Part shown: one piece after another, positions 4,643 through 24,161 of the stretch
Numbering within the stretch: the first letter of the stretch is position 1
Layout: each line of letters opens with the position of its first letter
NCBI GenBank assembly: GCA_052437175.1
Contig: JBQVOK010000001.1
Coordinates: forward strand, 227,388 to 291,387
Direction of reading: 5' to 3'
DNA length: 64,000 bases
From: Flavobacteriales bacterium
GTDB lineage: Bacteria; Bacteroidota; Bacteroidia; CAIKAF01
The notes under the pieces: model-generated
What the model was told of the DNA's origin: nothing
Seen by the model: the letters and a program-made list of their open reading frames with translations, nothing else
The model's database searches: none
Position numbers and translations under genes: made by a program

Positions 4643-6325
4643 ATGCTCAGGATACTACTGCTAAGTATAGGAATTTTAACCGCTTCACTGCTGCGGGCCC
4701 AGACCCCGCAGCAGGCCGAAGCGGAAAAACTGCTCACAGAGGCCGAGGCCTATTTCCTGGAAGCGAACGACCTGGATGCGGCCTCCGTACGCCTGCAACG
4801 CGTAATGGAACTGGATGCCACCCGTTTTAAAGCACCGCTGTACCTGGGCTGGATAAAACTGCTCCGCGAAGACTATGCGGCGGCTATGCCCCTTTTGGAT
4901 AAAGCCCTTGCCCTGGATACCCAAAAGGAACAGGAATACCTGGTCCGCTTTCTGAAGGGAACCATATTTTTTAACCAGAAACAGTACCCTGAAGCCATAG
5001 ACGAGCTTACGCGTTCGCTGGCTCTGCAGCCCGATAATTCCGAGGCCTACCATACCCGCGCCATGAGCTATATGCAGCAGGGACAGTACCTTAAAGCACT
5101 GCCCGACCTGAATACGGCCATAGCAGCAGACCCGGCTTCGGCAGCCCTGTACTTCGACCGCGGTCTTAGCTACCATGCCATGAGCATGTACGGCGAGGCC
5201 CTGAGCGACTTTGAAAAATGCCTGCAGACCGATCCGGCCTTTGTACGCTGCTACTACTACATGGGCAGCTGTTACATGGCTATGGAGCAGTACGAACGTG
5301 CGGCCTCCAATTTTGAGCTCAGTCTGCGCAAGGCAGATCATTCCGAAGAGTATACCTATGCATTGCTCCGTTCCGGAATTGCGTATATACATCTCAAAAA
5401 TTACGGAGAGGCCACCCGCAGGCTGAACCAGGTGATCGAACGCGCTCCCGGTCAGCCCGCACCGTATTCGTACCTGGGCTTTATATCCGTGGCGCAGGGG
5501 AAAGAAGACGAGGCACGCAGCTGGTTTCAGAAAGCCCTGGACAAAGATCCTGCTTACGACGAGGCTTTGTACCACCTGGGCCTGCTTAACTATGAAAAAG
5601 ACCCGCTGAAAGGGCTGGCCCAGCTGGAAGCGGCTGGCAGATCGGCCGCGGCTGGCGGACATACCGACCTTTTATCGCGCCTGGCCAACAGTTACATCGA
5701 ACTGAAAGATACCCTGAAGGCCCTGGAAACGCTGGACCTGCTGCTGGAGAAAGCTCCGGCGGACGTATATGCCCTCAAACGGCGTATAGAGATCAGCACC
5801 TATTACAGACCACGTTACGATGTACAGATACTCGATGATTTTAACACCCTCATCGAAATACATCAGAAACCTGCTGCACAGGCATATTACATGGTAGGCA
5901 AAGCCCTGTACCTGGCTGACAGCGGATACCTGAAAGACGCGGAAGAACTCGTAGGCGAGGCCATAGAGACCGACCCGTCCAATCCCGAATTCCTTGCCAT
6001 ACGTGCGCAGTTAAAACTCTTTATATTGCAGGAAAAACTACGTAAGGACAACCGCAGCAGTGCAACGGCAGAAGAACAGCAGCTGGTACTGGCCGATATA
6101 GATCTTCTGCTGCGTTATGCACACCGGCAGGCGGATGCCTACCTGCTTAAAACTACGGTGCTGATGGTATTCGGCCGTCATAAAGAAGCCTGCGAAGCCG
6201 CCGGGGAAGCTGTAAAACAGGGCGGACAGATCGAAAAGCCGGTATTGCAGTATATCTGCAAGGGTAAAGAACCGGCCGATAAAAGCATGAGATGGTCTTT
6301 CTTCTACGAATTATCGAAACCCTGA
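4643..6325 (+). CDS. Secreted tetratricopeptide-repeat (TPR) protein
   Basis: N-terminal signal peptide MLRILLLSIGILTASLLRAQ. There are many 34-aa TPR-like units (AxxYxxxGxxxxxxGxYxxA patterns) and a coding-like codon bias. Confidence 0.7.
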   Translation: MLRILLLSIGILTASLLRAQTPQQAEAEKLLTEAEAYFLEANDLDAASVRLQRVMELDATRFKAPLYLGWIKLLREDYAAAMPLLDKALALDTQKEQEYLVRFLKGTIFFNQKQYPEAIDELTRSLALQPDNSEAYHTRAMSYMQQGQYLKALPDLNTAIAADPASAALYFDRGLSYHAMSMYGEALSDFEKCLQTDPAFVRCYYYMGSCYMAMEQYERAASNFELSLRKADHSEEYTYALLRSGIAYIHLKNYGEATRRLNQVIERAPGQPAPYSYLGFISVAQGKEDEARSWFQKALDKDPAYDEALYHLGLLNYEKDPLKGLAQLEAAGRSAAAGGHTDLLSRLANSYIELKDTLKALETLDLLLEKAPADVYALKRRIEISTYYRPRYDVQILDDFNTLIEIHQKPAAQAYYMVGKALYLADSGYLKDAEELVGEAIETDPSNPEFLAIRAQLKLFILQEKLRKDNRSSATAEEQQLVLADIDLLLRYAHRQADAYLLKTTVLMVFGRHKEACEAAGEAVKQGGQIEKPVLQYICKGKEPADKSMRWSFFYELSKP

Positions 6326-6355
6326 ACGCATTCCCTTTTTTCGTATATTGAATGC

Positions 6356-7084
6356 ATGAATGCCAATGATCCACTTCTTGCAGACATCCGGCAGAAACTG
6401 GCTGACATGCTCAACGGGCGCCACTGTACCAGCGGCCATTTCCGGATGGAACGCCCCTCGTCGAATATGCTGCTGACCATGCACGGCGAACGACCCGATC
6501 TGCCCAAACCCGTATTCTTCTGGGAATGGCCCAACCCGGTAAAACGAAGTATATCCGTTTTCCTGGATGCCAACCCGGATCTTGCCGTGCTGGAAATGAA
6601 GCTGGACCTAGTACGGAATGCGATGGAGGTATATACGCAAAACCGTGCGGAATACAACGAGCAGAAAGAAAAGGAAGCACAGCAGCGGCAGGCTGAACTA
6701 CAACAGGCGCAACTGGAAAAACGCCGGCAACTGGCTACACTTACGCAGCCCTATGGACCCGAACTGGCCCTGCGCGTAACGGAACAGCTGCTCAAAGGCT
6801 ATTTCCTGGGTTACGGGCACCGGGATTACTGCGGCACCGGGCTGGAACGGAATGAAAAGGGACAGATCGTGTACGGAGAGATCTACGACGGCGGCATGAT
6901 CCTGCCCCTGCAGGTCTTTGAAACGTCCGGGGCCTTTGCCGAATGGCTGGCTGTACAATCCGATGCGTCCATGGCCCGGCTCGATTCCACAGAACCTTTT
7001 TACTGGGGCAACCAGACCATTACCGAACAGCGCCTGCGGGAGTTTGCGCCTTTTACCCCGGGCAGTTTCCAGGGCGGAAGATAA
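6356..7084 (+). CDS. Hypothetical protein
   Basis: 242-aa ORF filling the gap between flanking genes. No recognisable motifs. Confidence 0.45.
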   Translation: MNANDPLLADIRQKLADMLNGRHCTSGHFRMERPSSNMLLTMHGERPDLPKPVFFWEWPNPVKRSISVFLDANPDLAVLEMKLDLVRNAMEVYTQNRAEYNEQKEKEAQQRQAELQQAQLEKRRQLATLTQPYGPELALRVTEQLLKGYFLGYGHRDYCGTGLERNEKGQIVYGEIYDGGMILPLQVFETSGAFAEWLAVQSDASMARLDSTEPFYWGNQTITEQRLREFAPFTPGSFQGGR

Positions 7085-7086
7085 AT

Positions 7087-7779
7087 TCAGGAAAGTACAT
7101 GCAATCCTTCTTCCATTTCGCCCCGGCGGAAGCGGTTCACCATTTCGTGCGCCAGGCGTGTGGGTTCGGGTATGCGGTATTTGCCGGTGCAGAGGCGAAT
7201 GATGTCCAGGCTGTTCTGCATGCCCAGTCCGTGCCCCGGTGACACAAATACCGGCAGTGTGTTGTTTTTGCTGCGGTAGGCCCAGGCAATGGTTTCGGGG
7301 CCGTCCATCACGGGGCTGTAGTCGCCACGCATGGGCCCGGGCTCCCTGAATTTACCAAAGAGTATTTTCTTGGCGCAACCCATAGAAGGTTGCCCCGTAA
7401 GCGTACCGAAATGCGCCGCAATACCCATACGCCGCGGATGGGCTATACCATGCCCGTCTACCACCAGCAGATCGGGTTTCACAGGCATACGTTCCCAGGC
7501 TGTTTGCAGGGCGGGCACTTCACGAAAGGCCAGGTAACCGGGCACATAGGGAAAATGTGTTTCCGCCTTTACCAGGGAGCAGGCCAGGGGTTGCAGGGTA
7601 GGGAAGGAGAGCAGTATGATGCCCGCGTAAATGGTGGTACTGTACAGGTTCAGCGAGATATCGGCCCCGGCAATGGTCTGCAGGTGCAGGTCGCGCTCGG
7701 CTACGTCCAGCTTGCTGCGCAGTTCGTTCTGTATACGTGTGGCTTCAGGGATCCGGATATCGTCGTACAGTTGCGGCAT
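7087..7779 (-). CDS. nfi: Endonuclease V (deoxyinosine 3' endonuclease)
   Basis: Motifs AGADIS, YVPGYLAFREVP and VDGHGIAHPRRMGIAAHFG are characteristic of EndoV. Confidence 0.85.
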   Translation of the reverse strand: MPQLYDDIRIPEATRIQNELRSKLDVAERDLHLQTIAGADISLNLYSTTIYAGIILLSFPTLQPLACSLVKAETHFPYVPGYLAFREVPALQTAWERMPVKPDLLVVDGHGIAHPRRMGIAAHFGTLTGQPSMGCAKKILFGKFREPGPMRGDYSPVMDGPETIAWAYRSKNNTLPVFVSPGHGLGMQNSLDIIRLCTGKYRIPEPTRLAHEMVNRFRRGEMEEGLHVLS

Positions 7780-7841
7780 GTGTATACGTTTTAAGTCGGT
7801 ACAATACTTAAAGATACAAAAAATAAGGGAGATTTGCGTAC

Positions 7842-8318
7842 CTACAAACCCGAAAGATAGGCCTGCAGGCGTTGCAGGTTCTGCTTTTGGCCTTCTTCGG
7901 CCTTGTGGGCTTTCACGATGATATCGCGCTGTTCGGGCGTGTCAAATACCATGGTCCATTCCAGTAGCGTGTATTCCCCGTCCGGCTCAAACAGCACCGT
8001 GGTCATAAAATGCGGGTTGAAGTGCTCGAATACGATTTTATGCAGCGGAACGATCTCTTTAAAAACACTGCGGTTGGGATAATTGGTGCCGTCGGGGCCG
8101 TGTAGGGTAAGGCGCCATTCCCCGCCTTCGCGCAGGTCCATTTCGTGTATAGTGCTTGTAAAGCCGTCGGGGCCCCACCAGTGGGTAATGTGTTCGGGCT
8201 GGGTCCATGCGGCCCATAATTGCTCTACCGGGGTTTTAAAGCGATGTTGGATGCGTATTTCGCGGTCTGCGGTGTTTTCCATGTTACTCTGAAAATTTTG
8301 AATCGTTAATCTATCCAA
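7842..8318 (-). CDS. SRPBCC-family protein, Aha1/AHSA1-like (activator of Hsp90 ATPase homolog domain)
   Basis: 158 aa with the typical AHSA1-domain pattern (W..W..PE.I..WWGP.GF......D.R.GG.W...). The true start may be an internal Met. Confidence 0.55.
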   Translation of the reverse strand: MDRLTIQNFQSNMENTADREIRIQHRFKTPVEQLWAAWTQPEHITHWWGPDGFTSTIHEMDLREGGEWRLTLHGPDGTNYPNRSVFKEIVPLHKIVFEHFNPHFMTTVLFEPDGEYTLLEWTMVFDTPEQRDIIVKAHKAEEGQKQNLQRLQAYLSGL

Positions 8319-8815
8319 TGCTCGGGTTTTGGATATTTTCCGGTTCTATTCGGGTCGAAACGGCAACGCATGTTAGTATTCCCCTCCTGTTTAGCATACG
8401 TGGCAATCAGGTTATCGTTAAACGTTTTTGAGTTCAGGAAGGCTTTATCCGGTTGTACCTGTTCTTTTTCCAGGTCTACAAGATGAATGCGAAAGTCCGT
8501 GACCGTATCAGGAGCAAATTCGTTGTATATAAATTCACCCCAGGTATAGCTGCAGGCATACGATTTGGGATTCCAGCCTCTGCCGGAGATCAGCAGGTCT
8601 AAACGTTCCCCGTTGTGGATCTCCCCGATTATATCGAACGTACAGGCACAGGTGTCATCGCTGTCTTTGTCCGGAGGTACGGAGCTTACCGATGCTTCGG
8701 GGTTATGGTGCGTCCGGGCACTGACAGGTACCCCGGAACTATTCGTTTGGGTACAGGCCGAAACCAGGAAAAGACCTGGCAACAGCAGGAATATTTTAGC
8801 GAGCGGTTTATGCAT
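8306..8815 (-). CDS. Hypothetical lipoprotein
   Basis: Signal peptide plus lipobox (LFLVSAC), 169 aa. Overlaps the upstream gene by 13 bp. Confidence 0.5.
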   Translation of the reverse strand: MHKPLAKIFLLLPGLFLVSACTQTNSSGVPVSARTHHNPEASVSSVPPDKDSDDTCACTFDIIGEIHNGERLDLLISGRGWNPKSYACSYTWGEFIYNEFAPDTVTDFRIHLVDLEKEQVQPDKAFLNSKTFNDNLIATYAKQEGNTNMRCRFDPNRTGKYPKPEHWID

Positions 8816-8862
8816 AAGCAGTTTATGGCCTGGGTTTACAGACAGGCTAAAATAGCAATAAC

Positions 8863-9501
8863 TTATTTACAGTTGCACACCCGCCAGGTTTTGGCGGTGA
8901 TCCCGAACAGGGCCACATTCAGCAGATCGGCTTCGCTGGCATATACTCCATCGGCCTGTTGACTGGTAATTTCCTGCGGAATTAAGTTCTCTTTTATGGC
9001 ATCGGTATGTATCTGGTAATTTACTTTGGCCAGGGTGCGCCGCAGGTTCCAGTCCATTTTATTGTGGCGGCTTTCCTCGTTTTTAAGGCGTTGAAATTCT
9101 TTGATGAGGTAGAACTTAAATGGCGCACTCAACCAGCTGGCAAATTCAAACGCAATATCTTTATGGGCAAAGGTGCCACCGTTTTTTCCTTGTTTGGATA
9201 CAATGCCTTTGGCGTTTGTAGCTTCAGCCCATTTGGAGGGGGACAGCGTAAAGGTATTGCTGCCTGCCTCGTATAAAAAGGAGTCGAAATAGACCCCTTT
9301 AAAACCGGGATTGTTCAGTTGCTCCCAAAGGCCTAAAAACTCAATGCTTGTGCGGGGACGCATCCAGTTTTTAACTACATCTTTAGGTTCATTGGGATTT
9401 TTATACCGCGCAATATCGGTCAGTGAAATGTAGTCCTGCTCATTATCCTCGTAAAGACTAATATCGATGTGCTGAACGGTTATTTTCTTACTTTTTGCCA
9501 T
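8863..9501 (-). CDS. KilA-N domain protein
   Basis: The N-terminus (ITVQHIDISLYEDNEQDYISLTDIARYKN...NWMRPRTSIEFLGLWEQLNNP...GGTFAHKDIAFEFASWLSAPFKFYLIKEF) matches the Bacteroidetes KilA-N family, which is associated with phages and mobile elements. Confidence 0.75.
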   Translation of the reverse strand: MAKSKKITVQHIDISLYEDNEQDYISLTDIARYKNPNEPKDVVKNWMRPRTSIEFLGLWEQLNNPGFKGVYFDSFLYEAGSNTFTLSPSKWAEATNAKGIVSKQGKNGGTFAHKDIAFEFASWLSAPFKFYLIKEFQRLKNEESRHNKMDWNLRRTLAKVNYQIHTDAIKENLIPQEITSQQADGVYASEADLLNVALFGITAKTWRVCNCK

Positions 9502-9910
9502 ATTTCATATTGGTAAATTTTATATAGCCCAAAGCAGAACGGCCGCTGCGAAAACGACGTTTGATAAGGGCTGCGTATCCGGGTTTGTATAGGATGACTA
9601 AGATAGCCTGAATGCCCTAAAGAAAGTAGCTGCTTTTTCTGTAAAATGTTTAGCCTGAATATGTCCTGTGTAAAAGCCCGGATGTTTGTCTTGCCGGAGA
9701 ATGTGTAAAGATGTAGTTCCCTGTGTTTTTATATAAGGAGTCGAAATCGACCCCTTTAGCACAGGCATGATTCCGGTGGTGTATTCACATTTCTACACCT
9801 ACCGAATTCGAGAAGTTTAAAAAGGGGAAGGGCTGCCGCTTTGTGCCGTACGTAGGTTAATTCCATCGAATCCGATGGGTTTACAGGCGGGCGGGCCGGG
9901 GATGGTGCAG

Positions 9911-10414
9911 CTATCCAGCGGAGCTTTGCCCGATGCCGTAGCGTATGGCCTCTTCCAGTACGTTGAGGTCTATATCTTTCAGCGCTTTAAAGGCTATGCA
10001 GTAGCCCGTAACCTTAGCCTTGCCTATGCGGGCAGCAAAATGCTGCGGCAGGTATTGTTTGTCCGCCAGGCCCATAATGTATACGGAAATGCCTTTGCTG
10101 TTGCCGCTGAGCCCGATCTGGTAAAACGCCTTCGCCGAACCGTCTTTATAGCGTATGCTAAACTGTCCGTAACCGATATTGGGATTGCTGACCACCTTGC
10201 CGCTCTCGTCTGTACCATCCAGGAACCACAGCCGGCCATTGGGCAGCAGTTGCAACATGAGTTGATGCAGGGCCAGCAGGTCTGTGCGTTTGGGTTCTTG
10301 CTGGCTGGCGAGGTAAGCGTTGATCTGTTCCTGTGTGTGCATGGAAGGGAAGTTAGGGATTTGTTTTGTTGGGGTGGGTCTAAACCTGTCGAATTCGAGG
10401 GGGTAAAAGGGCAA
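9911..10414 (-). CDS. DUF1801 (YdhG-like) domain protein
   Basis: 167 aa, GC-rich like the host genome. Sequence pattern is typical of DUF1801 family members. It is the last gene of a tightly packed minus-strand array. Confidence 0.45.
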   Translation of the reverse strand: MPFYPLEFDRFRPTPTKQIPNFPSMHTQEQINAYLASQQEPKRTDLLALHQLMLQLLPNGRLWFLDGTDESGKVVSNPNIGYGQFSIRYKDGSAKAFYQIGLSGNSKGISVYIMGLADKQYLPQHFAARIGKAKVTGYCIAFKALKDIDLNVLEEAIRYGIGQSSAG

Positions 10415-10419
10415 CTACA

Positions 10420-11034
10420 TTATTCCACAGGCTTCCATCTGTCTCTGTGCCAAACCTCAAAATAATTGTCCTGCTCTGCAATGTAATGTGTAGCAGGGCA
10501 GTCAGAATAATAGGTAGTAAGGGTAGTAGGAACAAGCGCATAATCAAATTGCCAGAGTTTTGTCTTGTCATTGCTTGTTATGCCTTCAAAGTCAGAGCCA
10601 TCCTGCATTTCATCTGTGAAGTAAATGCCTGTTTGTTTAAATTCTCGGTGCATGGCCAGGCTTATGGTTTTAACCAGGTCATACGTATGCGGGTAAAATG
10701 CACCGTCTGCTGCACGTCTTAACTGTTCTGCTTCAATGAGTAAAGAACATTCCATCCAGGTATCTGTAAATATGCTGTCAACGGCGGGCGTATAGATACA
10801 AACATGAGGGCGGATAGTAATTCCATAATATACAGACAGAAAGTAACCAAACTGAGCCAGGGATGAAAAAACAAAACCATTTTCTTCTTTCCATTCGGCC
10901 CTGGTAAAGGTTTCTGCAATTTCAGCGTTCCACAGATCAATATTTCTAAGAACTGAAGCAAAGCGCTCGGCTACGGATGAAAAATCAGAACCGTTGATCC
11001 GTTCATAGGTCTGTATATTACTTAGGTCTGGCAT
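10420..11034 (-). CDS. Hypothetical protein (AT-rich, part of the AAA-S8 cassette)
   Basis: 204-aa ORF, 14 bp downstream of the S8 peptidase stop and 5 bp upstream of the next gene. Markedly AT-rich compared with flanking DNA. Confidence 0.5.
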   Translation of the reverse strand: MPDLSNIQTYERINGSDFSSVAERFASVLRNIDLWNAEIAETFTRAEWKEENGFVFSSLAQFGYFLSVYYGITIRPHVCIYTPAVDSIFTDTWMECSLLIEAEQLRRAADGAFYPHTYDLVKTISLAMHREFKQTGIYFTDEMQDGSDFEGITSNDKTKLWQFDYALVPTTLTTYYSDCPATHYIAEQDNYFEVWHRDRWKPVE

Positions 11035-11048
11035 AGTTTAGCGATAGA

Positions 11049-13580
11049 CTAAAGAGAATTGAAAAGATCAGTAGTATTTGCTAAAACTTCTACCGGTACT
11101 TCAATCATATTTCTCACTGTTGTATACAATTCAACATCCTGTGCAGGTGTATCCAGTGAAATAATCAATGAATAACGTGTTTGTTGTTTTACTTTTCCCA
11201 AATGCTTTCGCTCACGCCACCAACCAATAACGGGATAAACCGCAATATGATTGCAAGTTGCCAATGCGGCTGCAGTTCCTTCCCAATAATCGGAATGTAT
11301 TGACCCAGTGCTACGGTTGTTAGTTCCTATTACCCAACGGTTACTGCCGGTATTTCCGTTTACTTCTTCGTTTTCTTCCCGTGCTGCAATATTTACACGC
11401 TTTCTGAAATCTTCTTCACTTTCGCCTACGTTGTTTACGTCAAATCGTAAACCGTGCGACTGATAGCGGTATTTATCTTTCCAACCGATTTCGCCTGCTC
11501 CGGGTTCTATGAAATAGGAAAGCGTAATTTTCAGTTTCACGGGTGTTTCGCTCATTTGCAGTAACAAATCACTTGCCCACGGCAAATTAAAAAAATGAAT
11601 TTCGTTGGTTTCGGTCGTACTACTTTCTTCTTTGAAATTGAACGGTTGAATGGTTTCTTGGGCTATATAGGTTAATGCACTTTCCTGACTATACAATGCG
11701 CGGTCTAAATCGGGAACTCCATAACCAAAGGTTCGCAATAAATTTCTATAACTTGCTCTGTTACCTTGCTGCACTTGCATTTGAGCAAGCATAGCCTGAT
11801 GCCAGTTGGCAGAATGAACCATTAGACCCCTAATTGTTTCTGGCCAGGCATTTGGATATTCATACGCAATTTTTGCAGCAAACCAAGATGCTTGTGCTGC
11901 CGCAGCACTTGTGGCGTTAATGGTGTCAAATGGTTTTATGTTGAATGACCTTGATGTGGATAGTAACTCCAAATCTTCGTGAGCTGTAACGCTGTTGTCG
12001 GGTGCTCTCAACAAGTTTCCGCCTTCAAAAACCACATCGGGTTTTACGGGCCACTTCCTTTGTTCCCAAGTTAAAGATGTGGAACTGTAAGGTGAAAGTT
12101 GTCCTTCATTGGCAACAGGTATATGATTTTGAAAATTCGGAGCAGTTATCTGAATTTTTTCGGTATATGCTCCCACAACCAGCGCATTCCATGCTTGGGC
12201 GGGATTTTGAACAGGTGAGGTTTCATTTGACTGTGGATAATTACGCCACATTTCCTCATCACGGATATTTCCTGCGGAAACAATTATCAAGCGATGATTC
12301 TCGCCTTCGCCATAAGCCAAATTGTCTATTGCACCTGACCAAGAAGAAGGTCTGCCTTTGTCGGTATCTTCTTGTGAAGTAACAGACATACAATACACCA
12401 AAACCATATTGGGGTTTTGAATTTCGGCTCTTGCAACGCCTTGTATTGTTATATAACCCCATAGTTCCCGTGGCGTTTGTGCCTGATTTGGACGTGGCAA
12501 GATTTTTACAGAACACAATTTATGCGTAATCGGAACAACATCTTGTGAAAGAAGCACTTGTTCCATTTGTCCGTAACCTGCAAGCCCCGCCATTAGTGTT
12601 CCGTGTCCTGCTCTCGGTTCATGGTCGTCTGTTCCCCAAGCATTGTCAACGGTTAGTGTATTTGCATCGTCAATCAGTGGTTTGAGTAATTGATGCCCAT
12701 TGTTTACACCCGAATCCAATAAGCAAACTTTCACATTGCTTTCAACCAGTTCAATTCTTTGCAACAAATTATCAGTCCATGCTTGTTGCTCAACGCTGCT
12801 TTCGTTTACCCAGAATCCTGCGGGCTCCTGTCCAGCTCTGAACTCTGCCAGCAAGTCGCTTTGCAGCATCAATTCGATTAACTGTTCACGATTTGCGTTT
12901 ACAAGTAAAACGGCTCTTTCAGGAAAAATAATGCTGTTGTGTTTGTATGCTATTCCAATGTTGTCAAGAGTTGCAAAAAACTGTGCAATTTGTTCCTGCT
13001 CTTGGTTGTCTTTTGTATTCACATTCAGCCATGCTTCGATCCATTTGGCGACATCTGTTGGAATAAGTTGAGGTTTGTCAGTCCATAATCCTTCCAATAG
13101 AGCTATACTTACCTCTTCAATACTATTAACTAACCGTGCGTTTTTAGGTTGTCCCTTTGCCGTTTCTTCGTCTTGATATTTTTGGATTTTGGAAATGAAA
13201 TGTCCTTCTTTCCCGTTGGGAACATATACGGTTGCTCTTATTTGTGCTTGGTTTTCACCAACAGGAATTTCTTTGATGTTAAGCAATCGAATGCCTTTTC
13301 TAAGGTCTTCCAGACTTTTGGTAATCAAATCGTGGTCTGCCGAACTGGTAAACTGGATATACGTTCCTTCTCTGGTAGCAATTTGTTCTGCATTGCGTTG
13401 TTGTTGCAATTGCTCTTTTTGCTGCCAGATTGTGGCAAACTGTTGTAGCAATTTTTGACTTTGGGTTGCCCTGTCACGGGCTGGAATACGTGGTTGCGCA
13501 CCCCTTGCTGAAGGTGATTTGTATTTTTCGCTCTCCACGTTTCCAATAAGAAAGAAGTGTTTGTGAGGGGTTGGTGACAT
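11049..13580 (-). CDS. S8-family (subtilisin-like) serine peptidase with roughly 280-aa N-terminal and 270-aa C-terminal extensions of unknown function
   Basis: Catalytic triad motifs are present in the canonical order: D (VCLLDSGV), H (HGTLMAGLAGYG) and S (NATSAAAAQASWFAAKIA). 843 aa, AT-rich codon usage. Confidence 0.8.
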   Translation of the reverse strand: MSPTPHKHFFLIGNVESEKYKSPSARGAQPRIPARDRATQSQKLLQQFATIWQQKEQLQQQRNAEQIATREGTYIQFTSSADHDLITKSLEDLRKGIRLLNIKEIPVGENQAQIRATVYVPNGKEGHFISKIQKYQDEETAKGQPKNARLVNSIEEVSIALLEGLWTDKPQLIPTDVAKWIEAWLNVNTKDNQEQEQIAQFFATLDNIGIAYKHNSIIFPERAVLLVNANREQLIELMLQSDLLAEFRAGQEPAGFWVNESSVEQQAWTDNLLQRIELVESNVKVCLLDSGVNNGHQLLKPLIDDANTLTVDNAWGTDDHEPRAGHGTLMAGLAGYGQMEQVLLSQDVVPITHKLCSVKILPRPNQAQTPRELWGYITIQGVARAEIQNPNMVLVYCMSVTSQEDTDKGRPSSWSGAIDNLAYGEGENHRLIIVSAGNIRDEEMWRNYPQSNETSPVQNPAQAWNALVVGAYTEKIQITAPNFQNHIPVANEGQLSPYSSTSLTWEQRKWPVKPDVVFEGGNLLRAPDNSVTAHEDLELLSTSRSFNIKPFDTINATSAAAAQASWFAAKIAYEYPNAWPETIRGLMVHSANWHQAMLAQMQVQQGNRASYRNLLRTFGYGVPDLDRALYSQESALTYIAQETIQPFNFKEESSTTETNEIHFFNLPWASDLLLQMSETPVKLKITLSYFIEPGAGEIGWKDKYRYQSHGLRFDVNNVGESEEDFRKRVNIAAREENEEVNGNTGSNRWVIGTNNRSTGSIHSDYWEGTAAALATCNHIAVYPVIGWWRERKHLGKVKQQTRYSLIISLDTPAQDVELYTTVRNMIEVPVEVLANTTDLFNSL

Positions 13581-13589
13581 AGTGATTAA

Positions 13590-14543
13590 TTATTTATGGT
13601 ATGCTGCGTTTCGGTCTTTAATGGCTTTTAGAATTAATTGATTATTCATTTGCTGCTTCTCATTTAGCACCGTTTCTTTAATGGCATCAATGCAGGCAAG
13701 CGATATTTCAGCATGACTCAAGCCATTAATATTGGGCAGGAGCTCTTCAAAATTTATTCTTTTTCTGAAACGTGCAAGTCTGTTTTTCAGCAGGGCACGT
13801 TTCTCCTCTATGCTTGGTAGCTGATATAAAATCACATCGTCAAACCTGCGAAAAAGAGCCTGGTCTAAAAGTTCTTTATTATTGGTAATGGCAATAATAA
13901 GGCTATCAGAATTATCCCGTTCAATAAATTGAAGAAAAGAGTTTAGGACTCTGCGCATTTCGCCTACGTCATTCTCTCTACTACGTTCACCGCCTATAGC
14001 ATCAAATTCATCAAAAAGATAAATACCCTGTTTCTGCTCAATTAGATCAAATATTTGACGAAGCTTAGCACTGGTTTCTCCCATGAATTTTGTTACCATT
14101 TTATCCATTAAAATGGTGTAAAGTGGTAAGTTCAGCTCGTTGGCAATAATCGAAGCAGTCAGGGTTTTTCCTGTTCCGGGGGGGCCTGAAAGTAAAATTT
14201 TCCTCCGATTTTCTAAGTCATGTTTGCGAAGTTTGTCTCGCTGTACAAACTCTGAAATAATCCGGTTGATTTTGGACCTTATGTCTTCAGAAGCAATTAT
14301 GTCTGAAAGATTGACAGCAGGTACATTTTCCTGTATTAATCCTTGTAAATCAGGAGTGAATATTTTTGTTTTATGTTTTGCTTCTTTTGCTTTGTCTATT
14401 ATGCTCTTAATATCATTTGCTACTAAGGTGTGTCCTAATTTAGCTTCATGGGCTGCAATTTGTAGGGCAACGGTAGTAAAGCGTTCCGGCTCATTATTAT
14501 AGTGAGCCTTAATTAATGAAATTATATAATCAGCTTTTGCCAT
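13590..14543 (-). CDS. Classic-clade AAA ATPase (single AAA module with a helical N-domain)
   Basis: Walker A (GPPGTGKT), Walker B (IYLFDEFD) and second region of homology (LDQALFRRFD). AT-rich. The stop lies 9 bp before the S8 peptidase start. Confidence 0.8.
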   Translation of the reverse strand: MAKADYIISLIKAHYNNEPERFTTVALQIAAHEAKLGHTLVANDIKSIIDKAKEAKHKTKIFTPDLQGLIQENVPAVNLSDIIASEDIRSKINRIISEFVQRDKLRKHDLENRRKILLSGPPGTGKTLTASIIANELNLPLYTILMDKMVTKFMGETSAKLRQIFDLIEQKQGIYLFDEFDAIGGERSRENDVGEMRRVLNSFLQFIERDNSDSLIIAITNNKELLDQALFRRFDDVILYQLPSIEEKRALLKNRLARFRKRINFEELLPNINGLSHAEISLACIDAIKETVLNEKQQMNNQLILKAIKDRNAAYHK

Positions 14544-14581
14544 TCAAATCTTGGGGGTTACACTATTCGTGTGCTATTTTA

Positions 14582-14998
14582 TTATCTATTGATTAACATC
14601 TCTAACCGTTGGAGCATCTCATCCTTTTCCTTCAACATGCGCTCATACAGTGCAATCTTTTCGTCATACAGGCTGAGGATTTTATTCTCATACAGCTCTA
14701 TGATCTTTTCCAATGGATTGAATTGGTTCTGAACAGAATTATCGTGAAAGTTGTTATTGATATTATGAATGGCCTGTTCCGCGTCAAAGTTTTGTATGGC
14801 TTCCATGGGCAGTTTCAATACAGTCGCTATCTGCTTTAGGATATTGTCCTCAATGGTTTCGCGCTGTTCCAGCAGGCTTATTTTCTGTTGATTCCAGTCC
14901 TCGCCCAGTTCCCAGGCAAGGGCGTCCTGCTTCATGCCCAGCATCTCGCGGAAGCGTTTAATATTGCGGCCCTGGTGTATTTTAGTGCTGTTACGCAT
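14582..14998 (-). CDS. XRE-family helix-turn-helix transcriptional regulator with coiled-coil C-terminus
   Basis: HTH motif IKRFREMLGMKQDALAWELG. Immediately upstream (38 bp) of the AAA ATPase on the same strand. Confidence 0.65.
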   Translation of the reverse strand: MRNSTKIHQGRNIKRFREMLGMKQDALAWELGEDWNQQKISLLEQRETIEDNILKQIATVLKLPMEAIQNFDAEQAIHNINNNFHDNSVQNQFNPLEKIIELYENKILSLYDEKIALYERMLKEKDEMLQRLEMLINR

Positions 14999-15210
14999 TA
15001 TGGTAAAATTTATGGTAAAGGTATGCTTTTTAAGGGTATTGCAATATAGGTGTTTTATGATAAAATACAGGTAAAAAACGGATGAACCTACTGGAAAATT
15101 TCAAGTAGGATATATGTATTTGAATGGGTAAAAACATAAAGAAAAGCGCCCTCCCGGCAAGGAAGAGCGCTTTCGTTACTCTATGCGCACTTTAGTAAAA
15201 TAGTTACCGG

Positions 15211-15714
15211 CTACCCGCCATCGGCTTCTGTGCCGGGTGTCTGGTCTTTTTTGCGGCGCAGGCCCGTGCTGGGGAACAGCCGTCGGATGTCTTCCATTTT
15301 AACGTCGTAACCCGGAGCTTCGGTGCCGGCCATGTAGCGGGTGTACTGGTAGTCGTTCAGGGCGGTCTTGTACACGTCGTGGTCGTGCAGGATCTTGCAG
15401 TCAGACGTCATGTCCAGCAGGTTGCGTATGCGGCTGAGCAGTTCTTCCAGGAAATTGCGGTCCGTGAAATCGGCCTCGAATTCGTTCCAGTCGATCTGCG
15501 GACTACTCAGCGCAGGCTGCTGCTGCCGGTAATCGCGTACCTTGTGTACTACCAGTTTGTTCTGTTCGTTGATGCTACCGTATTCCTGGCGTTCCGCGGG
15601 ACTCAGGTTACGGGTTTTGGGGGAGATGGCATTGTGCAGAGAGTCGAGCAGGGTGCGGATCGTGTTCATATCAGCCGGACTGAAATGCTGATCCGTTAAA
15701 TTGTTTATGGGCAT
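15211..15714 (-). CDS. Hypothetical protein
   Basis: 167-aa ORF with host-like GC. No recognisable motifs. Confidence 0.4.
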   Translation of the reverse strand: MPINNLTDQHFSPADMNTIRTLLDSLHNAISPKTRNLSPAERQEYGSINEQNKLVVHKVRDYRQQQPALSSPQIDWNEFEADFTDRNFLEELLSRIRNLLDMTSDCKILHDHDVYKTALNDYQYTRYMAGTEAPGYDVKMEDIRRLFPSTGLRRKKDQTPGTEADGG

Positions 15715-16536
15715 AGCAAAACTGTGTTATTTGGTTATTAAATTGAAAAAATGCTATGCACAGCGCTGTGACTATATCCTATACACGCAAAAAAAGACAG
15801 TTTCGTATATAGAGACCGGCCCTGTTTTCTAAAAAAATACTTAAATTTTAGTTTATATCTACTTAAATAGCTGTAGAACATAGGTTTAATGAGTTTGGAA
15901 ACGGTGTGCTTTTTCTGCGGAAATGGCCGTACATACGGCTACAAATGGGTATAAGCGGTAGGGTAAATGGGTGCAGCTGGTTGCGGAGATAGTGCAGCCG
16001 GCAGGCAGAATGGGTATAGCCGGTAGCTGAGGTAGTGCAGTTGCTAAGGGCAGGTGGTGTACCGGGTCCCCAACGTAGTACAGCCGCTTATGAGTCTGCT
16101 ACAGCCGGTATAAGAACCGGGTATAGACACTATACCCACTGGGTACAGCCAATTTAGATATTCCATACAGATAGTAGAGGGAATATTTGCAGGGGATGCA
16201 AAGGTTGTGTGCAGACAGGTTTCTGAATGGCTACAGGGGCTATGTGCTATGTATGTACACAGGTTAGGGTATGGTTATAGGGACTCCGGGGTTCCGGCAG
16301 GATACCTGCGAACAGGCATACAGGCAGTCCGTGCCGGAAAAGAACAGGAAATGCATCACCCTGTACCGGAGTTTAGTGCAGGCGCTGAAAGCTTTAGTAA
16401 GAGGTATATAATGTTCAGCCATACTATGAAATACCCGGCGGGGCGGCATAAGCGGTTTTGATGCGTGCTGCGTTTGAAATAAATTTGCAAAATAGTTTCC
16501 TTTTGTGAAACATTTTACCCGCTCAAACGTTATAGT

Positions 16537-16893
16537 ATGCAGGTACGATTGTTCTTGAGCGCTACCATTGAAGATTTTGTGCGCGACCATGCCAACGCGA
16601 AAGTACATTTCCGCAATTTTTTGACTGCCATCCGTTATGCAGACTGGCATACGCCGGCAGATATTCCCCGGAGCATACGGGCTAACCTGCTGGGTAACGG
16701 TTCCGACAGAGTGGTGTTCGATATCGGGGGCAACGGCCGTAATGCCTTCCGCATGATATGCAGTTATAAATTCGGTTGTCCCTACCGTAAAAGCAATACC
16801 GAAAAAGTGCAGCTGTACGTGAACCGGATCGGCACGCACGAAGTATACAATATGCTCAGCGAAGAACAAAAGCGTACGATTACCGACTATTAA
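16537..16893 (+). CDS. higB: Type II toxin-antitoxin toxin, HigB/RelE superfamily
   Basis: Residues ADWHTPADI...NRVVFDIGGNGRNAFRMICSYKFG...VQLYVNRIGTHEVYNML match the Bacteroidetes HigB family. The toxin sits upstream of the antitoxin, as in HigBA operons. Confidence 0.7.
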   Translation: MQVRLFLSATIEDFVRDHANAKVHFRNFLTAIRYADWHTPADIPRSIRANLLGNGSDRVVFDIGGNGRNAFRMICSYKFGCPYRKSNTEKVQLYVNRIGTHEVYNMLSEEQKRTITDY

Positions 16894-16904
16894 AACGCAT
16901 TGCC

Positions 16905-17312
16905 ATGAACAACATTAAAGTAATAAAAAGCAAACCGCAATACCTGGCCTACAACCGGCAGCTGCGCAAACTCTGGGAAGATCCTTCGCCGGAGAACGAG
17001 GACGAGCGCGAACTGCTGGAGGTACTTATCCGTGTGTGGGAGCAGGAGCATCTGCCGCATGAAGACAGCGACCCCATAGAGCTGCTGAAGTTCCTGATGG
17101 AAAACCACGAGCTGGACCGCAGCCGCATGATGGAAATTATGGAGGTGAACAAGGCCACGCTCAGCAAGATACTGAACTACAAAAAAGGGCTTTCCAAGAA
17201 TGTGATCCGGCGTCTTTCGGAACACTTCAACATTTCGCAGGAGGCCTTTAATCGTCCTTATCTATTGCAGCCGGATACCGATACCTCCGCTCCGAAAGCA
17301 GAAACTGTGTAA
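16905..17312 (+). CDS. higA: HigA-type HTH antitoxin
   Basis: HTH region NKATLSKILNYKKGLSKNVIRRLSEHFNISQEAF. Lies 11 bp after higB. Confidence 0.65.
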   Translation: MNNIKVIKSKPQYLAYNRQLRKLWEDPSPENEDERELLEVLIRVWEQEHLPHEDSDPIELLKFLMENHELDRSRMMEIMEVNKATLSKILNYKKGLSKNVIRRLSEHFNISQEAFNRPYLLQPDTDTSAPKAETV

Positions 17313-17314
17313 AT

Positions 17315-17680
17315 TTGTATACTATGCTCAACGCGATACATCCCAAACTACCGATGCGCAACAAAGCCGCCACGCGCACTTTTTACATAGACGGACTGGG
17401 TTTTGAACCAACCGGCCCGGTGGATTACGACGGCTACCTGATGCTGCGTAAAGACAACATCGAAATACACTTTTTTGAATTCCGGGAGCTGGACCCGCTG
17501 CAGAACTACGGACAGGTGTACATACGCACCGCGGAGATCGAAAAACTGTATCAGCAGGCCCTGGACAAAGGTCTGAACATGCCCGCCGCCGGTCAGCTGC
17601 AAACCAAACCCTGGGGACAAAAAGAGTTTTCCCTGCTGGATCCCGATCACAACCTGCTTACCTTCGGGCAGAGCCTGTAA
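17315..17680 (+). CDS. VOC-family (glyoxalase/bleomycin-resistance fold) protein
   Basis: 121 aa with a beta-alpha-beta-beta-beta module pattern (…IHFFEF…YIRTAEIEKLYQQA…) typical of glyoxalase-fold proteins. Confidence 0.5.
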   Translation: MYTMLNAIHPKLPMRNKAATRTFYIDGLGFEPTGPVDYDGYLMLRKDNIEIHFFEFRELDPLQNYGQVYIRTAEIEKLYQQALDKGLNMPAAGQLQTKPWGQKEFSLLDPDHNLLTFGQSL

Positions 17681-17814
17681 TGTTCACAGGCGATAGCGAA
17701 TGACCCATAGCCCGGTTCCTGGGAGCATGGGGTATTCTTTTTTGTTAAAATCAATCATTATTTATTGTTATTCGATAAATAATTGTTCCTTTGCAATCAT
17801 AACCTTAAAATGAA

Positions 17815-18363
17815 TTGACAATGGAAATCAAGATCAGTACCCGGCAGACGCTTCGCTTGCTGAACATTATTGCCTGGTATCTTTTTATCGGTATGTGCAT
17901 TGAAGCAGGCAGTTTTTTCTTTAATGCATTCTATACAATAGCTATAAACCCTGAGGCAGCCGGTTACTTTCGCCTGGCCGAGCTTTATGCATACGATCAG
18001 GGTTATTTCCTGGTGCAGGTTTTGCTGGTAAGCATACCCGCTGTGCTGAAGGCCCTGCTGTTCTTCCTGATCGTAAAAATACTGATGGGCAAGAAGCTGA
18101 ATGTGGCCCAGCCCTTCAACAGGGAAATGGGACGCTTTTTGCGGAATGCTTCCTGGATATCGCTGGGCATAGGTGCGTTCTCTTTCTGGGCAGGAACGTA
18201 CAGGCTATGGCTGCAGCAAAAAGGTATACCCATACCCGATGTGGAAAAGCTGAATATAGACGGCGCAAGTGTATGGCTGTTCATGGGCGTTATTCTCCTT
18301 ATCATTGCCCAGCTGTTTAAACGCGGCATTGAAATACAGTCCGAAAACGAATTAACGATATAA
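17815..18363 (+). CDS. DUF2975-family membrane protein
   Basis: Four predicted TM helices. It is directly followed by a small YozG-like XRE regulator, which is the conserved DUF2975-HTH gene pair. Confidence 0.55.
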   Translation: MTMEIKISTRQTLRLLNIIAWYLFIGMCIEAGSFFFNAFYTIAINPEAAGYFRLAELYAYDQGYFLVQVLLVSIPAVLKALLFFLIVKILMGKKLNVAQPFNREMGRFLRNASWISLGIGAFSFWAGTYRLWLQQKGIPIPDVEKLNIDGASVWLFMGVILLIIAQLFKRGIEIQSENELTI

Positions 18364-18367
18364 GCCT

Positions 18368-18577
18368 ATGCCGATCATTGTAAACCTGGACGTAATGATG
18401 GCCCGGCGTAAAATATCGCTGAATGAACTGTCAGAGAAAGTAGACATCACGCTCTCGAACCTTTCCATCCTGAAAACGGGCAAGGCCAAAGCCATACGCT
18501 TCAGCACGCTGGAGGCGATATGCAAAGCCCTGGACTGCCAGCCGGGGGATATACTGGAGTTTAGAAAGGATAGCTGA
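18368..18577 (+). CDS. XRE-family HTH transcriptional regulator (YozG-like)
   Basis: 69 aa. HTH motif ISLNELSEKVDITLSNLSILKTGKAKAIRFSTLEAICKAL. Confidence 0.7.
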   Translation: MPIIVNLDVMMARRKISLNELSEKVDITLSNLSILKTGKAKAIRFSTLEAICKALDCQPGDILEFRKDS

Positions 18578-18663
18578 AGGCTATGAGCTGGTAGCTATTA
18601 GCTTTTTTTCAGTACTTTTGCCCTGGCAAACCGCGCTGCTGCGCCTTGCCGGAAGGAGAAAAA

Positions 18664-19482
18664 ATGATCCATTTAAAGACCAGAGAAGAAATAGAGCTCA
18701 TGTACCAGTCGGCACAGCTGGTGTCGAAGACACTGGGGATGGTGGCGCGGGAGATCAAACCCGGCGTTAGCACCCTGCAGCTGGATACCATGGCCGAAGA
18801 ATTTATACGCGACCACGGCGGAATACCGGCTTTTAAAGGCATGTACGGTTTCCCGAAAACACTGTGTATGTCGCCCAATGAACAGGTGGTGCACGGCATC
18901 CCCAATAATACCCCGCTGAAAGACGGCGACGTGATCTCCGTAGACTGCGGCGTACTCATGAACGGCTACTACGGCGACCATGCCTATTCCTTTGAAGTGG
19001 GCGAAGTGGCCCCCGAAACCCGCAAACTGCTGCAGGTGACCAAAGAAAGCCTGTACAAAGGCATTGCGCAGTGTGTAAAAGGTAACCGTATCGAGGACAT
19101 CAGTTATGCTATACAGTCGTATTGCGAAGAGCATGGCTATGGCATTGTGCGTGAACTGGTGGGCCACGGCCTCGGTAAAAAGATGCACGAAGACCCGCAG
19201 GTACCCAATTACGGTAAACGCGGCCGGGGTAAAGTAATTGCCGAAGGACTCACCATTGCCATTGAACCCATGGTGAACATGGGCACGGGCGAAGTAAAAT
19301 TCCATAAGGATGGCTGGACGGTGACCACCAAAGACAACAAGCCCTCCGCCCATTTTGAGCACGATGTGGCTGTGATCAACGGCAAACCCGTGCTGCTTTC
19401 CACGTTTAAGTACGTATACGAGGCCCTGGGCATTGAAAGCGACGAAGAAGAACCGTTTTTGTATAATGAAGTTAGCTTATAG
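18664..19482 (+). CDS. map: Type I methionine aminopeptidase
   Basis: Metal-binding motifs (DVISVDCGV, GYYGDHAYSF, HGLGKKMHE, IAIEPMV). I take the start at ATG 18664; the ORF-track start at 18646 is a TTG. Confidence 0.9.
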   Translation: MIHLKTREEIELMYQSAQLVSKTLGMVAREIKPGVSTLQLDTMAEEFIRDHGGIPAFKGMYGFPKTLCMSPNEQVVHGIPNNTPLKDGDVISVDCGVLMNGYYGDHAYSFEVGEVAPETRKLLQVTKESLYKGIAQCVKGNRIEDISYAIQSYCEEHGYGIVRELVGHGLGKKMHEDPQVPNYGKRGRGKVIAEGLTIAIEPMVNMGTGEVKFHKDGWTVTTKDNKPSAHFEHDVAVINGKPVLLSTFKYVYEALGIESDEEEPFLYNEVSL

Positions 19483-24075: not shown

Positions 24076-24161
24076 AGTAAAAGCAGGAATCCTGCACCGG
24101 GATACATTTGATTTTTCAGTTGAAAAAGAGGTTATTTGCATAAAAAGTATGAAATTGTTCT

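Follow-up and report, generated by a model that had tools for sequence, protein, structure and literature searches.

A probable two-gene IetAS toxin-antitoxin and anti-phage module in a chromosomal defence hotspot of a Flavobacteriales bacterium

Do four closely packed, AT-rich genes on a Flavobacteriales contig constitute a defence system of a new kind, or do they include a known system flanked by genes with other affiliations? An earlier note on this DNA, made from the sequence alone, proposed an uncharacterised cassette of an XRE regulator, a AAA ATPase, an S8 peptidase and a 204-aa protein. In the window, by which we mean the whole stretch of 64,000 nucleotides analysed, the four minus-strand open reading frames are as that note described them, but the 5-nt spacer that it counted inside the cassette is not there. 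The spacers are 38 nt (HTH gene to ietA), 9 nt (ietA to ietS) and 14 nt (ietS to the 204-aa gene), while the 5-nt gap is that to the next ORF, a DUF1801 gene for which the start as called probably lies too far upstream. The locus is arranged as follows.

10420-11034, minus strand: 204-aa gene, flanking, AT-rich and stand-alone; not an IetAS component
11035-15141, no strand: segment of variable cargo at the hotspot, here the HTH gene, ietA and ietS
11049-13580, minus strand: ietS, 843-aa S8 subtilase, putative toxin/effector subunit (PADLOC, PF00082, pTiC58 homology)
13590-14543, minus strand: ietA, 317-aa classic-clade AAA+ ATPase, putative antitoxin/regulatory subunit (PADLOC, PF00004, pTiC58 homology)
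14582-14998, minus strand: XRE-type HTH gene, 138 aa, with a helical C-terminal half (PADLOC HTH_VI)
14999-15141, minus strand: intergenic region specific to the island, upstream of the HTH gene; presumed site of promoter and operator
15142-15174, minus strand: terminator-like hairpin belonging to the 167-aa gene upstream; marks where the variable segment ends on the right

Profile searches with PADLOC and Pfam identify the ATPase and the S8 protein as IetA and IetS, and the description of the system as uncharacterised therefore does not hold, since the founding pair is known. We assign 11049-14543 to a two-gene IetAS module, and give this family assignment, together with the general toxin-antitoxin and abortive-infection logic that comes with it, a probability of roughly 0.85. 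The PADLOC IetA model matches residues 1-314, its full length, at 6.9e-71, and the protein is 46% identical to pTiC58 IetA across its full length (E 2e-95). The plasmid DNA behind the pTiC58 comparisons is itself 100% identical to NC_003065.3. The reading of IetA as a classic-clade AAA ATPase with Walker A and B motifs is confirmed by the Pfam profile (PF00004, 9.5e-31) and by the location of the motifs, which are intact and all on the minus strand.

14163-14186, minus strand: Walker A GPPGTGKT, IetA residues 120-127
14079-14090, minus strand: pore loop KFMG, residues 152-155
14001-14018, minus strand: Walker B LFDEFD, residues 176-181
13878-13889, minus strand: ITNN, residues 219-222
13839-13853, minus strand: FRRFD (Arg fingers), residues 231-235

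A PDB sequence search places the D2 domains of p97/VCP (p97/Cdc48) closest to IetA among solved structures (1.7e-43); the D2 rings of p97/Cdc48 are substrate-threading. The N-domain of IetA yielded nothing usable in a Pfam scan at E<=10.

The protease is likewise what it had appeared to be, an 843-aa S8 peptidase whose D/H/S triad lies between large unannotated extensions. PF00082 matches residues 281-621 at 8e-63, the PADLOC IetS model covers residues 181-832 at 2.5e-42, and the alignment to pTiC58 IetS is collinear over residues 3-836, extensions included (37% identity, E 1e-171). The catalytic residues and the oxyanion asparagine are invariant in 43 IetS homologues, and at least 2,771 homologues are found at E<=1e-10.

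11718-12740, minus strand: IetS S8 domain (PF00082)
12714-12716, minus strand: catalytic D289
12603-12605, minus strand: catalytic H326
12267-12269, minus strand: oxyanion N438
11907-11909, minus strand: catalytic S558

The N-terminal 280 and C-terminal 222 residues, to which no Pfam model matches even at E=10, are family-specific. No N-terminal signal sequence is evident, and a PDB sequence search gave no solved relative of IetS. An AlphaFold2 model built from the 43 homologues scored poorly (pLDDT 38.9, pTM 0.31) because these are all at least 73% identical, and it is unusable for the folds of the terminal extensions.

Two NCBIfam equivalog models give low scores, with 196 bits against a cut-off of 510 for IteA_antiphage and 52 bits against 900 for IteS_antiphage. 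These models are narrow, and scores below their cut-offs are compatible with the PADLOC matches and with direct homology to the pTiC58 pair; scores so far below indicate instead that the pair belongs to a subfamily divergent from the members on which the models were built. Two other known systems were considered and set aside. A CBASS TRIP13/HORMA assignment is disfavoured by a weak TRIP13 match (4.1e-14, against 6.9e-71 for IetA) and by the lack of an adjacent HORMA or CD-NTase gene, and for the EccA and mycosin of type VII secretion the scores are 30-32 bits where the cut-offs stand at 279 and 467, with no other ESX genes adjacent.

Comparison of neighbourhoods across genomes shows that the ATPase-protease pair is conserved. 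IetA lies directly upstream of IetS in 22/22 related loci that include upstream DNA (Bacteroidota and Ignavibacteria), and its copies there are 86-92% identical to that of the window, across orders. Taken with the E-values, this synteny places the pairing far beyond chance. DNA similarity between the related loci and the window begins at the ATG of IetA and stops at 11085-11098, 12-16 codons before the stop codon of IetS, and since it is confined to ietA and ietS, the mobile unit consists of these two genes only. What surrounds them differs from genome to genome, and the pair has a GC content of 0.33-0.41 against 0.30-0.54 in the flanks. In one case, a metagenomic relative whose IetS is 88% identical, the pair sits in a type I R-M operon, in the order HsdM..HsdS-IetA-IetS-HsdR.

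Composition in the window also points to acquisition, as the earlier note had observed, although its estimate of about 55% GC for the host is too high. The GC content is 0.369 in ietA, 0.421 in ietS, 0.420 in the 204-aa gene and 0.434 in the HTH gene; the flanks stand at 0.53 and 0.52 and the whole window at 0.511, and the host therefore at about 51-53%. The view of the ATPase/S8 pair as a horizontally acquired module of the defence or abortive-infection type in an accessory region is upheld. The earlier note was also correct that AAA-ATPase/S8 gene pairs turn up repeatedly in defence islands with no mechanism assigned to them.

The site of insertion can be defined by comparison with a sister genome, whose flanks are 94-100% identical to those of the window and which is otherwise syntenic but lacks the IetAS pair. 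By blastn, window positions 5001-11034 match sister L006 and 15142-19109 match sister L007, and between these blocks only 122 nt of the HTH N-terminus match the sister genome. Region 14999-15141 is not shared; similarity resumes at 15142, with a hairpin (14-bp stem, then a T-run) that is the same in the sister genome through the end of the stem. In place of IetAS, the sister genome carries at this site a SymE gene, an HTH paralogue, ShosT/PsyrT-like and ShosA/PsyrA-like genes and an Mrr-type nuclease (PADLOC). Because the same site holds different defence cargo in the two genomes, we regard it as a defence hotspot. The sister HTH paralogue is 49% identical to the HTH protein of the window and heads the ShosTA/PsyrTA-like cassette. 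This genome has gained the pair by horizontal transfer, at a hotspot of defence genes in the chromosome and immediately downstream of an XRE HTH gene of resident type. Nothing supports an origin as a transposon, integron or tRNA island: terminal repeats, direct or inverted, were sought around the island and gave only short chance matches, and the window contains no tRNA or Rfam element.

The locus is a new Bacteroidota copy of a named toxin-antitoxin and anti-phage system that has already been tested. According to later accounts, the pTiC58 pair was first described as a toxin-antitoxin system (Yamamoto 2009, as cited in PMC13069673 and PMC5006074), and anti-phage activity of the family was reported by Gao 2020 (as cited in PMC13069673). 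In pTiC58, the roles of toxin and antitoxin fall to IetS and IetA, respectively, and a homologous pair resides on SGI1 (PMC5006074, PMC13069673). The Agrobacterium pair resembles that of the window in its order of ATPase then protease, its short spacer and its catalytic motifs. However, it is plasmid-borne in Alphaproteobacteria, whereas the pair in the window lies on a Bacteroidota chromosome, falls within a tight, AT-rich clade from Bacteroidota and Ignavibacteria that scores under the NCBIfam equivalog cut-offs, and has an XRE HTH gene in front of it. IetAS of B. cereus m1293 and of E. coli ECOR52 are experimentally tested anti-phage members of the same named system (bioRxiv 10.1101/2022.08.27.505566, 10.1101/2022.08.21.504612). 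SGI1 S026-S025 (sgiAT) likewise couples a AAA antitoxin with an S8 toxin and maintains a chromosomal island (PMC5006074), but it belongs to an enterobacterial integrative mobilisable element and was studied for island maintenance rather than for phage defence. The ietHAS system of Liu-DS4 consists of the IetAS core and one upstream gene, an SNF2 helicase (PMC13069673). That helicase is required for defence and is conserved with the pair, unlike the HTH and 204-aa genes of the window.

In the reading of the earlier note, all four genes, XRE regulator, AAA ATPase, S8 protease and 204-aa protein, would act together as a novel system, the last of them as substrate, inhibitor or partner. The genes are co-oriented with the short spacers given above, the 204-aa gene matches the pair in AT-richness at third codon positions (GC3 0.38 vs 0.31-0.35), its nucleotide identity to the sister genome is 75-77% where the outer flank shows 97-100%, so that it may have been swapped together with the cargo, and its immunity-protein-like fold could in principle inhibit an enzyme. 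However, synteny largely refutes such a system, which we consider very unlikely. By tblastn at 1e-4, neither an HTH nor a 204-aa homologue accompanies IetAS at any of 24 related genome loci, and neither is found beside the two nearest metagenomic relatives, whose IetS proteins are 93% and 88% identical; as noted, the DNA common to related loci is limited to the two coding sequences. Homologues of the 204-aa gene stand alone in unrelated contexts in five other genomes, and the sister copy (68% identical) follows the ShosTA-like/Mrr cargo, so that this gene is not a member of the cassette. Nor is the XRE gene a conserved regulator of IetAS, because its family, found in Bacteroidota with more than 7,500 members, heads many unrelated cassettes and elsewhere precedes genes for C5 and N6 methyltransferases, GmrSD, AAA_15/21, PRTase and DUF4411.

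Returning to the two-gene module, it could be argued that IetAS serves here mainly as an addiction module that stabilises the island or the content of the hotspot, with little or no role against phage. Such stabilisation was the first function described for pTiC58 IetAS and the homologous SGI1 pair (PMC5006074, PMC13069673), and 625 plasmid records, most of them conjugative, contain an IetA homologue. The window locus is chromosomal, though, at a site occupied by different anti-phage systems in the sister genome; a close relative is nested in the type I R-M operon; and homologues confer phage protection by abortive infection (bioRxiv 10.1101/2022.08.27.505566, PMC13069673). A mainly addictive role seems improbable, and the two roles do not exclude one another. 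A housekeeping pair for quality control or secretion, comparable to FtsH/PAN ATPase with a protease or to EccA with mycosin, would account for the weak NCBIfam matches of IetA to PAN, FtsH, Cdc48 and EccA and of IetS to mycosin. All these scores are far under the curated cut-offs, and a pair that is missing from the sister genome, changes neighbourhood in each genome, is foreign to its host in composition and has no further type VII secretion genes beside it has almost no chance of being a housekeeping one.

For the IetAS module itself, characterised relatives suggest how it might operate. The ability of IetA to neutralise toxic IetS depends on its ATPase in the pTiC58, SGI1 and ietHAS homologues (PMC5006074, PMC13069673), the protease activity of IetS is required for defence, cloning of an ietA mutant proved impossible (PMC13069673), and abortive infection by IetAS of B. 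cereus m1293 is triggered by yosG of SPbeta (bioRxiv 10.1101/2022.08.27.505566). In the E. coli and B. cereus homologues, phage protection by abortive infection needs the catalytic serine (bioRxiv 10.1101/2022.08.27.505566; Gao 2020, as cited in PMC13069673). By analogy, IetS of the window would be a toxic effector and IetA its ATP-dependent antitoxin, and the pair would protect against phage by abortive infection that needs protease activity. As to the physical mode of restraint and the cleavage targets of IetS, we infer the following sequence of events. In an uninfected cell, the IetA ring would engage IetS and block its activity through ATP-driven remodelling or sequestration; that an unfoldase step is responsible is a tentative proposal, to which we give somewhat less than an even chance. 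This control would be upset by a protein of the phage or by some effect of its replication; released IetS would then cleave proteins of the cell or of the phage, and growth arrest or death of the infected cell would precede phage release. The same toxin-antitoxin logic may also stabilise the stretch of DNA on which the pair resides.

Expression of the pair here probably depends on the resident-type XRE HTH gene, which would supply its promoter and regulation. Its identification as an XRE regulator was sound: members of its family carry PF01381 and NCBI names the protein an XRE family regulator, although its own Pfam matches are sub-threshold (HTH_31 0.0076, HTH_3 0.009) and PADLOC HTH_VI matches at 6.5e-07. 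The 38-nt spacing, with no terminator-like site found in the gap, suggests that the HTH gene and ietA are co-transcribed, and the HTH protein is probably a local transcriptional regulator and promoter donor that would control the ietAS operon. A sigma-70 promoter scan gave 11 matches against 10.6 expected from shuffled sequence, with a model unsuited to Bacteroidota. Family members often have a divergent SymE-like gene or an unannotated gene of about 186 aa upstream. It is conceivable, if rather doubtful, that this family of helical-tailed XRE HTH proteins provides general head regulators for interchangeable defence cassettes, with an Imm52-like orphan immunity gene at the other edge in this lineage. 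If so, these regulators would mark new defence cargo in Bacteroidota and provide a shared switch for its expression.

The assignment changes little for the field, as a standard PADLOC-type scan would label the locus IetAS, and any novelty may sit in the architecture of the hotspot, where cassettes have been replaced between sister genomes, rather than in the pair. Nevertheless, the locus documents a tight and highly mobile Bacteroidota/Ignavibacteria clade, in which IetA keeps about 90% identity from one order to another and GC content stays at 0.33-0.41, and which NCBI equivalog models miss. Its mobile unit of two coding sequences is placed behind an available promoter, that of an XRE gene here and of a type I R-M operon elsewhere, and its compact, highly conserved homologues could suit structural work.

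For the 204-aa protein, searches of the PDB by sequence and of a viral fold library returned no solved relative and no significant match, respectively, and distant members of its family showed no sequence link to Pfam immunity families; its fold resembles toxin-immunity proteins, and it is a candidate for an Imm52/CdiI-like one. The accessory setting described for the cassette was recovered in full, with a KilA-N protein (PF04383; PADLOC candidate PDC-S22 at 5e-104), a pair formed by HigB (PF09907) and a HigA-like HTH protein, and a further HTH regulator (HTH_26).

On the sequence comparisons made here, the ATPase and peptidase genes of this locus form a further member of the known IetAS family, which lies inside a defence hotspot. 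Four minus-strand open reading frames (ORFs) are found at precisely the positions that the earlier note had assigned to them, and are listed below with three other ORFs of the window.

8863-9501, minus strand, KilA-N protein, PADLOC candidate defence family PDC-S22 (5e-104)
9911-10414, minus strand, DUF1801 ORF, listed start a TTG 5 nt from the 204-aa gene
10420-11034, minus strand, ORF for a 204-aa protein
11049-13580, minus strand, ORF for an 843-aa S8 peptidase (IetS; PF00082, PADLOC)
13590-14543, minus strand, ORF for a 317-aa AAA ATPase (IetA; PF00004, PADLOC)
14582-14998, minus strand, ORF for a 138-aa HTH protein
24162-25463, plus strand, 433-aa ORF without a Pfam match, in a second AT-rich stretch

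Spacers of 38, 9 and 14 nt separate the HTH gene from ietA, ietA from ietS, and ietS from the 204-aa gene. The still shorter 5-nt spacing reported previously is likely an ORF-calling artefact, because homologues of the DUF1801 ORF align only from residue 12 on, so that its true start is probably further downstream. The described drop in GC content is real, with values of 0.369 for ietA, 0.421 for ietS, 0.420 for the 204-aa gene and 0.434 for the HTH gene compared with 0.52-0.53 in the flanks. However, these flanks and the value for the window (0.511) indicate a host of about 51-53% GC and not ~55%. The KilA-N, HigBA and additional XRE neighbours were also recovered, as KilA-N, HigB, HigA-like and HTH_26 proteins, and the KilA-N protein (8863-9501) has a 95% identical counterpart in the sister genome, a close relative with near-identical flanks.

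The module had been considered uncharacterised, but PADLOC models name its ATPase IetA (6.9e-71, full length) and its peptidase IetS (2.5e-42, residues 181-832), and both proteins are homologous to those of pTiC58, the plasmid where IetAS was originally defined. As a reference we used the ATPase and S8 genes of an Agrobacterium Ti plasmid whose DNA is 100% identical to pTiC58 (NC_003065.3, 97873-101373). The likeness extends from end to end in both proteins, with 46% identity over the whole length of IetA (E 2e-95) and 37% identity for IetS (E 1e-171), whose alignment stays collinear over residues 3-836 and takes in the two unannotated extensions. NCBIfam "IteA/IteS antiphage" models match far below their equivalog cut-offs (196 vs 510 bits and 52 vs 900 bits), and the window pair is thus a divergent subfamily relative to these narrow models. 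The classic AAA motifs expected of the ATPase (PF00004, 9.5e-31) were located as Walker A GPPGTGKT (residues 120-127), Walker B LFDEFD (176-181) and FRRFD (231-235), together with the pore loop KFMG (152-155) and ITNN (219-222). In the peptidase (PF00082, 8e-63, residues 281-621), the predicted triad D289, H326 and S558 is present along with N438, none of which varies across 43 aligned homologues, and this domain does lie between extensions of 280 aa (N-terminal) and 222 aa (C-terminal) that no Pfam model matches at a threshold of E=10. Some longer IetS relatives of ~898-906 aa (those at loci L027, L028, L032 and L035, and proteins P0177, P0190 and others) carry a ~65-aa internal tandem duplication covering roughly residues 68-135, which suggests a repeatable structural unit in the N-terminal domain.

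Comparison of gene neighbourhoods, which the earlier note had proposed as a check, shows that the pair is syntenic elsewhere. Scanning a single genome for each species yielded 24 loci with close IetS relatives (best-segment identity 70-84%) in Bacteroidales, Flavobacteriales, Cytophagales, Sphingobacteriales, Saprospiraceae, Ignavibacteria and one MAG labelled Acholeplasmataceae. IetA, 86-92% identical, is encoded directly upstream of IetS in 22 of the 22 loci that have upstream DNA, and neighbouring genes on both sides differ from locus to locus among those examined. DNA similarity to the window runs from the IetA start codon (14543/14544) to 11085-11098, which is 12-16 codons short of the IetS stop. 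The final ~11 residues of IetS (window 11049-11098) vary between loci, a pattern that would fit a mobile-unit boundary within the 3' end of ietS itself. Given this synteny, these limits and the absence of HTH and 204-aa homologues at all 24 loci (tblastn, 1e-4), the conserved mobile unit comprises the two coding sequences alone. The GC content of the pair stays at 0.33-0.41 across loci while flanks range from 0.30 to 0.54, and this composition of its own explains why it looks AT-rich in a ~52% GC genome. The two closest metagenomic relatives agree with this: one, with a 93% identical IetS, has no HTH gene upstream, and the other (L117, 206-9427) places an 88% identical IetAS within a type I restriction-modification operon arranged HsdM..HsdS-IetA-IetS-HsdR, in which HsdR is backed by a PDB sequence match (1e-21).

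The sister genome reveals what else can occupy this site. Its flanking proteins share 94-100% identity with their window counterparts, and by blastn window 5001-11034 aligns to its contig L006 and 15142-19109 to its contig L007, whereas the only match between 11034 and 15142 is 122 nt of the HTH N-terminus. The left junction is the start codon of the 204-aa gene and the right junction falls just past the terminator hairpin of the upstream 167-aa gene. In place of HTH-IetA-IetS (window 11035-15141), L007 3981-7865 carries five genes:

gene 1, divergent, SymE-like
gene 2, HTH paralogue, 49% identical
gene 3, ShosT/PsyrT-like PRTase (1.8e-12)
gene 4, ShosA/PsyrA-like DprA-family protein (2.9e-43)
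gene 5, Mrr-type nuclease, PDC-S02 (4.7e-15)

By these alignments the site is a defence hotspot, and the two genomes present a clean case in which one defence cassette stands in for another between near-identical flanks. A search for terminal repeats, tRNA genes and Rfam elements turned up none, which leaves homologous recombination in the flanks as the simplest way to swap the cargo. L006 and L007 carry the nearest homologue of the 204-aa protein, at 68% identity. Nucleotide identity to the sister genome is 0.99 at 9250-10000, 0.87 at 10250 and 0.75-0.77 within the 204-aa gene, and this fall suggests that the gene may have been exchanged together with the cargo in this lineage.

These distributions bear on what the two outer genes might contribute. 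The synteny data essentially refute a four-gene system of HTH protein, IetA, IetS and 204-aa protein, with the latter as a partner, as neither outer gene accompanies IetAS at the 24 related loci and the 204-aa gene occurs alone in five other genomes. In none of these is an AAA or S8 gene nearby: the homologue is flanked by IS elements in Hymenobacter, lies between a histidine kinase and a LytTR regulator, follows Mfd, adjoins LysR and DoxX genes, or is surrounded by genes that largely lack annotation, with transposases encoded a few kb further downstream. The 204-aa protein has no match in Pfam, PADLOC or NCBIfam and no PDB relative by sequence, and its family is small (52 close matches, 143 cluster representatives at 50% identity), with all members single-domain and ~200 aa. 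With moderate confidence, it is probably an orphan immunity-type gene resident at the hotspot edge. The HTH family, in turn, has >7,500 members, nearly all in Bacteroidota, and the 752-kb MAG contig that holds the window encodes a second one, a 73% identical paralogue. Of 80 metagenomic loci surveyed for this family (L037-L116), 60 extend 1 kb or more downstream, and 29 of these 60 have a co-oriented downstream gene whose start lies within 200 nt. Downstream genes encode C5 and N6 DNA methyltransferases, a type I specificity subunit, GmrSD, AAA_15, AAA_21 and AAA_23 ATPases, a ShosT-like PRTase, and DUF4411, HATPase_c_3, ORC/Cdc6-like, NUDIX and KilA-N/ORF6N proteins; many are of defence type by raw count. 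Divergent upstream genes are SymE-like in 8/38 loci and belong to a ~186-aa family with no assigned function in 19/38. Such diversity argues that the HTH protein, frequently neighboured by defence genes, may be a generic head-of-cassette regulator; it is not an IetAS component. Because the 38-nt gap to ietA holds no predicted terminator, we infer co-transcription with ietA and local regulation.

Three findings exclude a housekeeping or secretion role for the pair: the syntenic sister genome lacks it, its composition is foreign, and its scores fall far under the cut-offs. The proposed horizontal acquisition of the pair is supported. What had been observed in the sequence was confirmed, and its interpretation is partly supported.

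The original account of IetAS is of a toxin-antitoxin system that stabilises a plasmid, its serine protease being the toxin and its ATPase the antitoxin (Yamamoto 2009, as cited by PMC13069673 and PMC5006074), and the SGI1 island is maintained by a homologous pair (PMC5006074). A purely addictive, island-stabilising role fits this family history and would not exclude defence. Protease-dependent anti-phage activity is attributed to Gao et al. 2020 where PMC13069673 cites that study. In Bacillus cereus, an IetAS works through abortive infection and turns toxic upon expression of the SPbeta gene yosG (bioRxiv 10.1101/2022.08.27.505566). A 2026 paper describes the anti-phage mechanism as still unknown, and in that work cloning of an ietA mutant was not possible (PMC13069673).

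The nearest solved relatives of IetA by sequence are p97/VCP/Cdc48 D2 rings (1.7e-43), hexamers that thread their substrates. In IetA the aromatic pore loop, Walker motifs and arginine fingers are intact, the catalytic set of IetS is complete, and no N-terminal hydrophobic signal sequence was seen in the IetS translation. The best-supported model draws on these intact motifs and on the published toxin-antitoxin and abortive-infection data for homologues. An IetA ring would hold or remodel IetS in an ATP-dependent manner and so keep it inactive, a phage-derived trigger would end this restraint, and proteolysis by IetS would then arrest or kill the infected cell. On both the physical form of this restraint and the targets of IetS, the model is conjectural.

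Ordinary defence-system annotation would already put the IetAS name on this locus. What is mildly new is the tight mobile Bacteroidota clade, its mobile unit of two coding sequences and the HTH-headed hotspot. The second AT-rich stretch of the window (24000-25500, GC 0.40-0.42) contains the 433-aa ORF, which has an AraC-family regulator gene on one side and a convergent S13 D-Ala-D-Ala carboxypeptidase gene on the other, and which may be another acquired gene.
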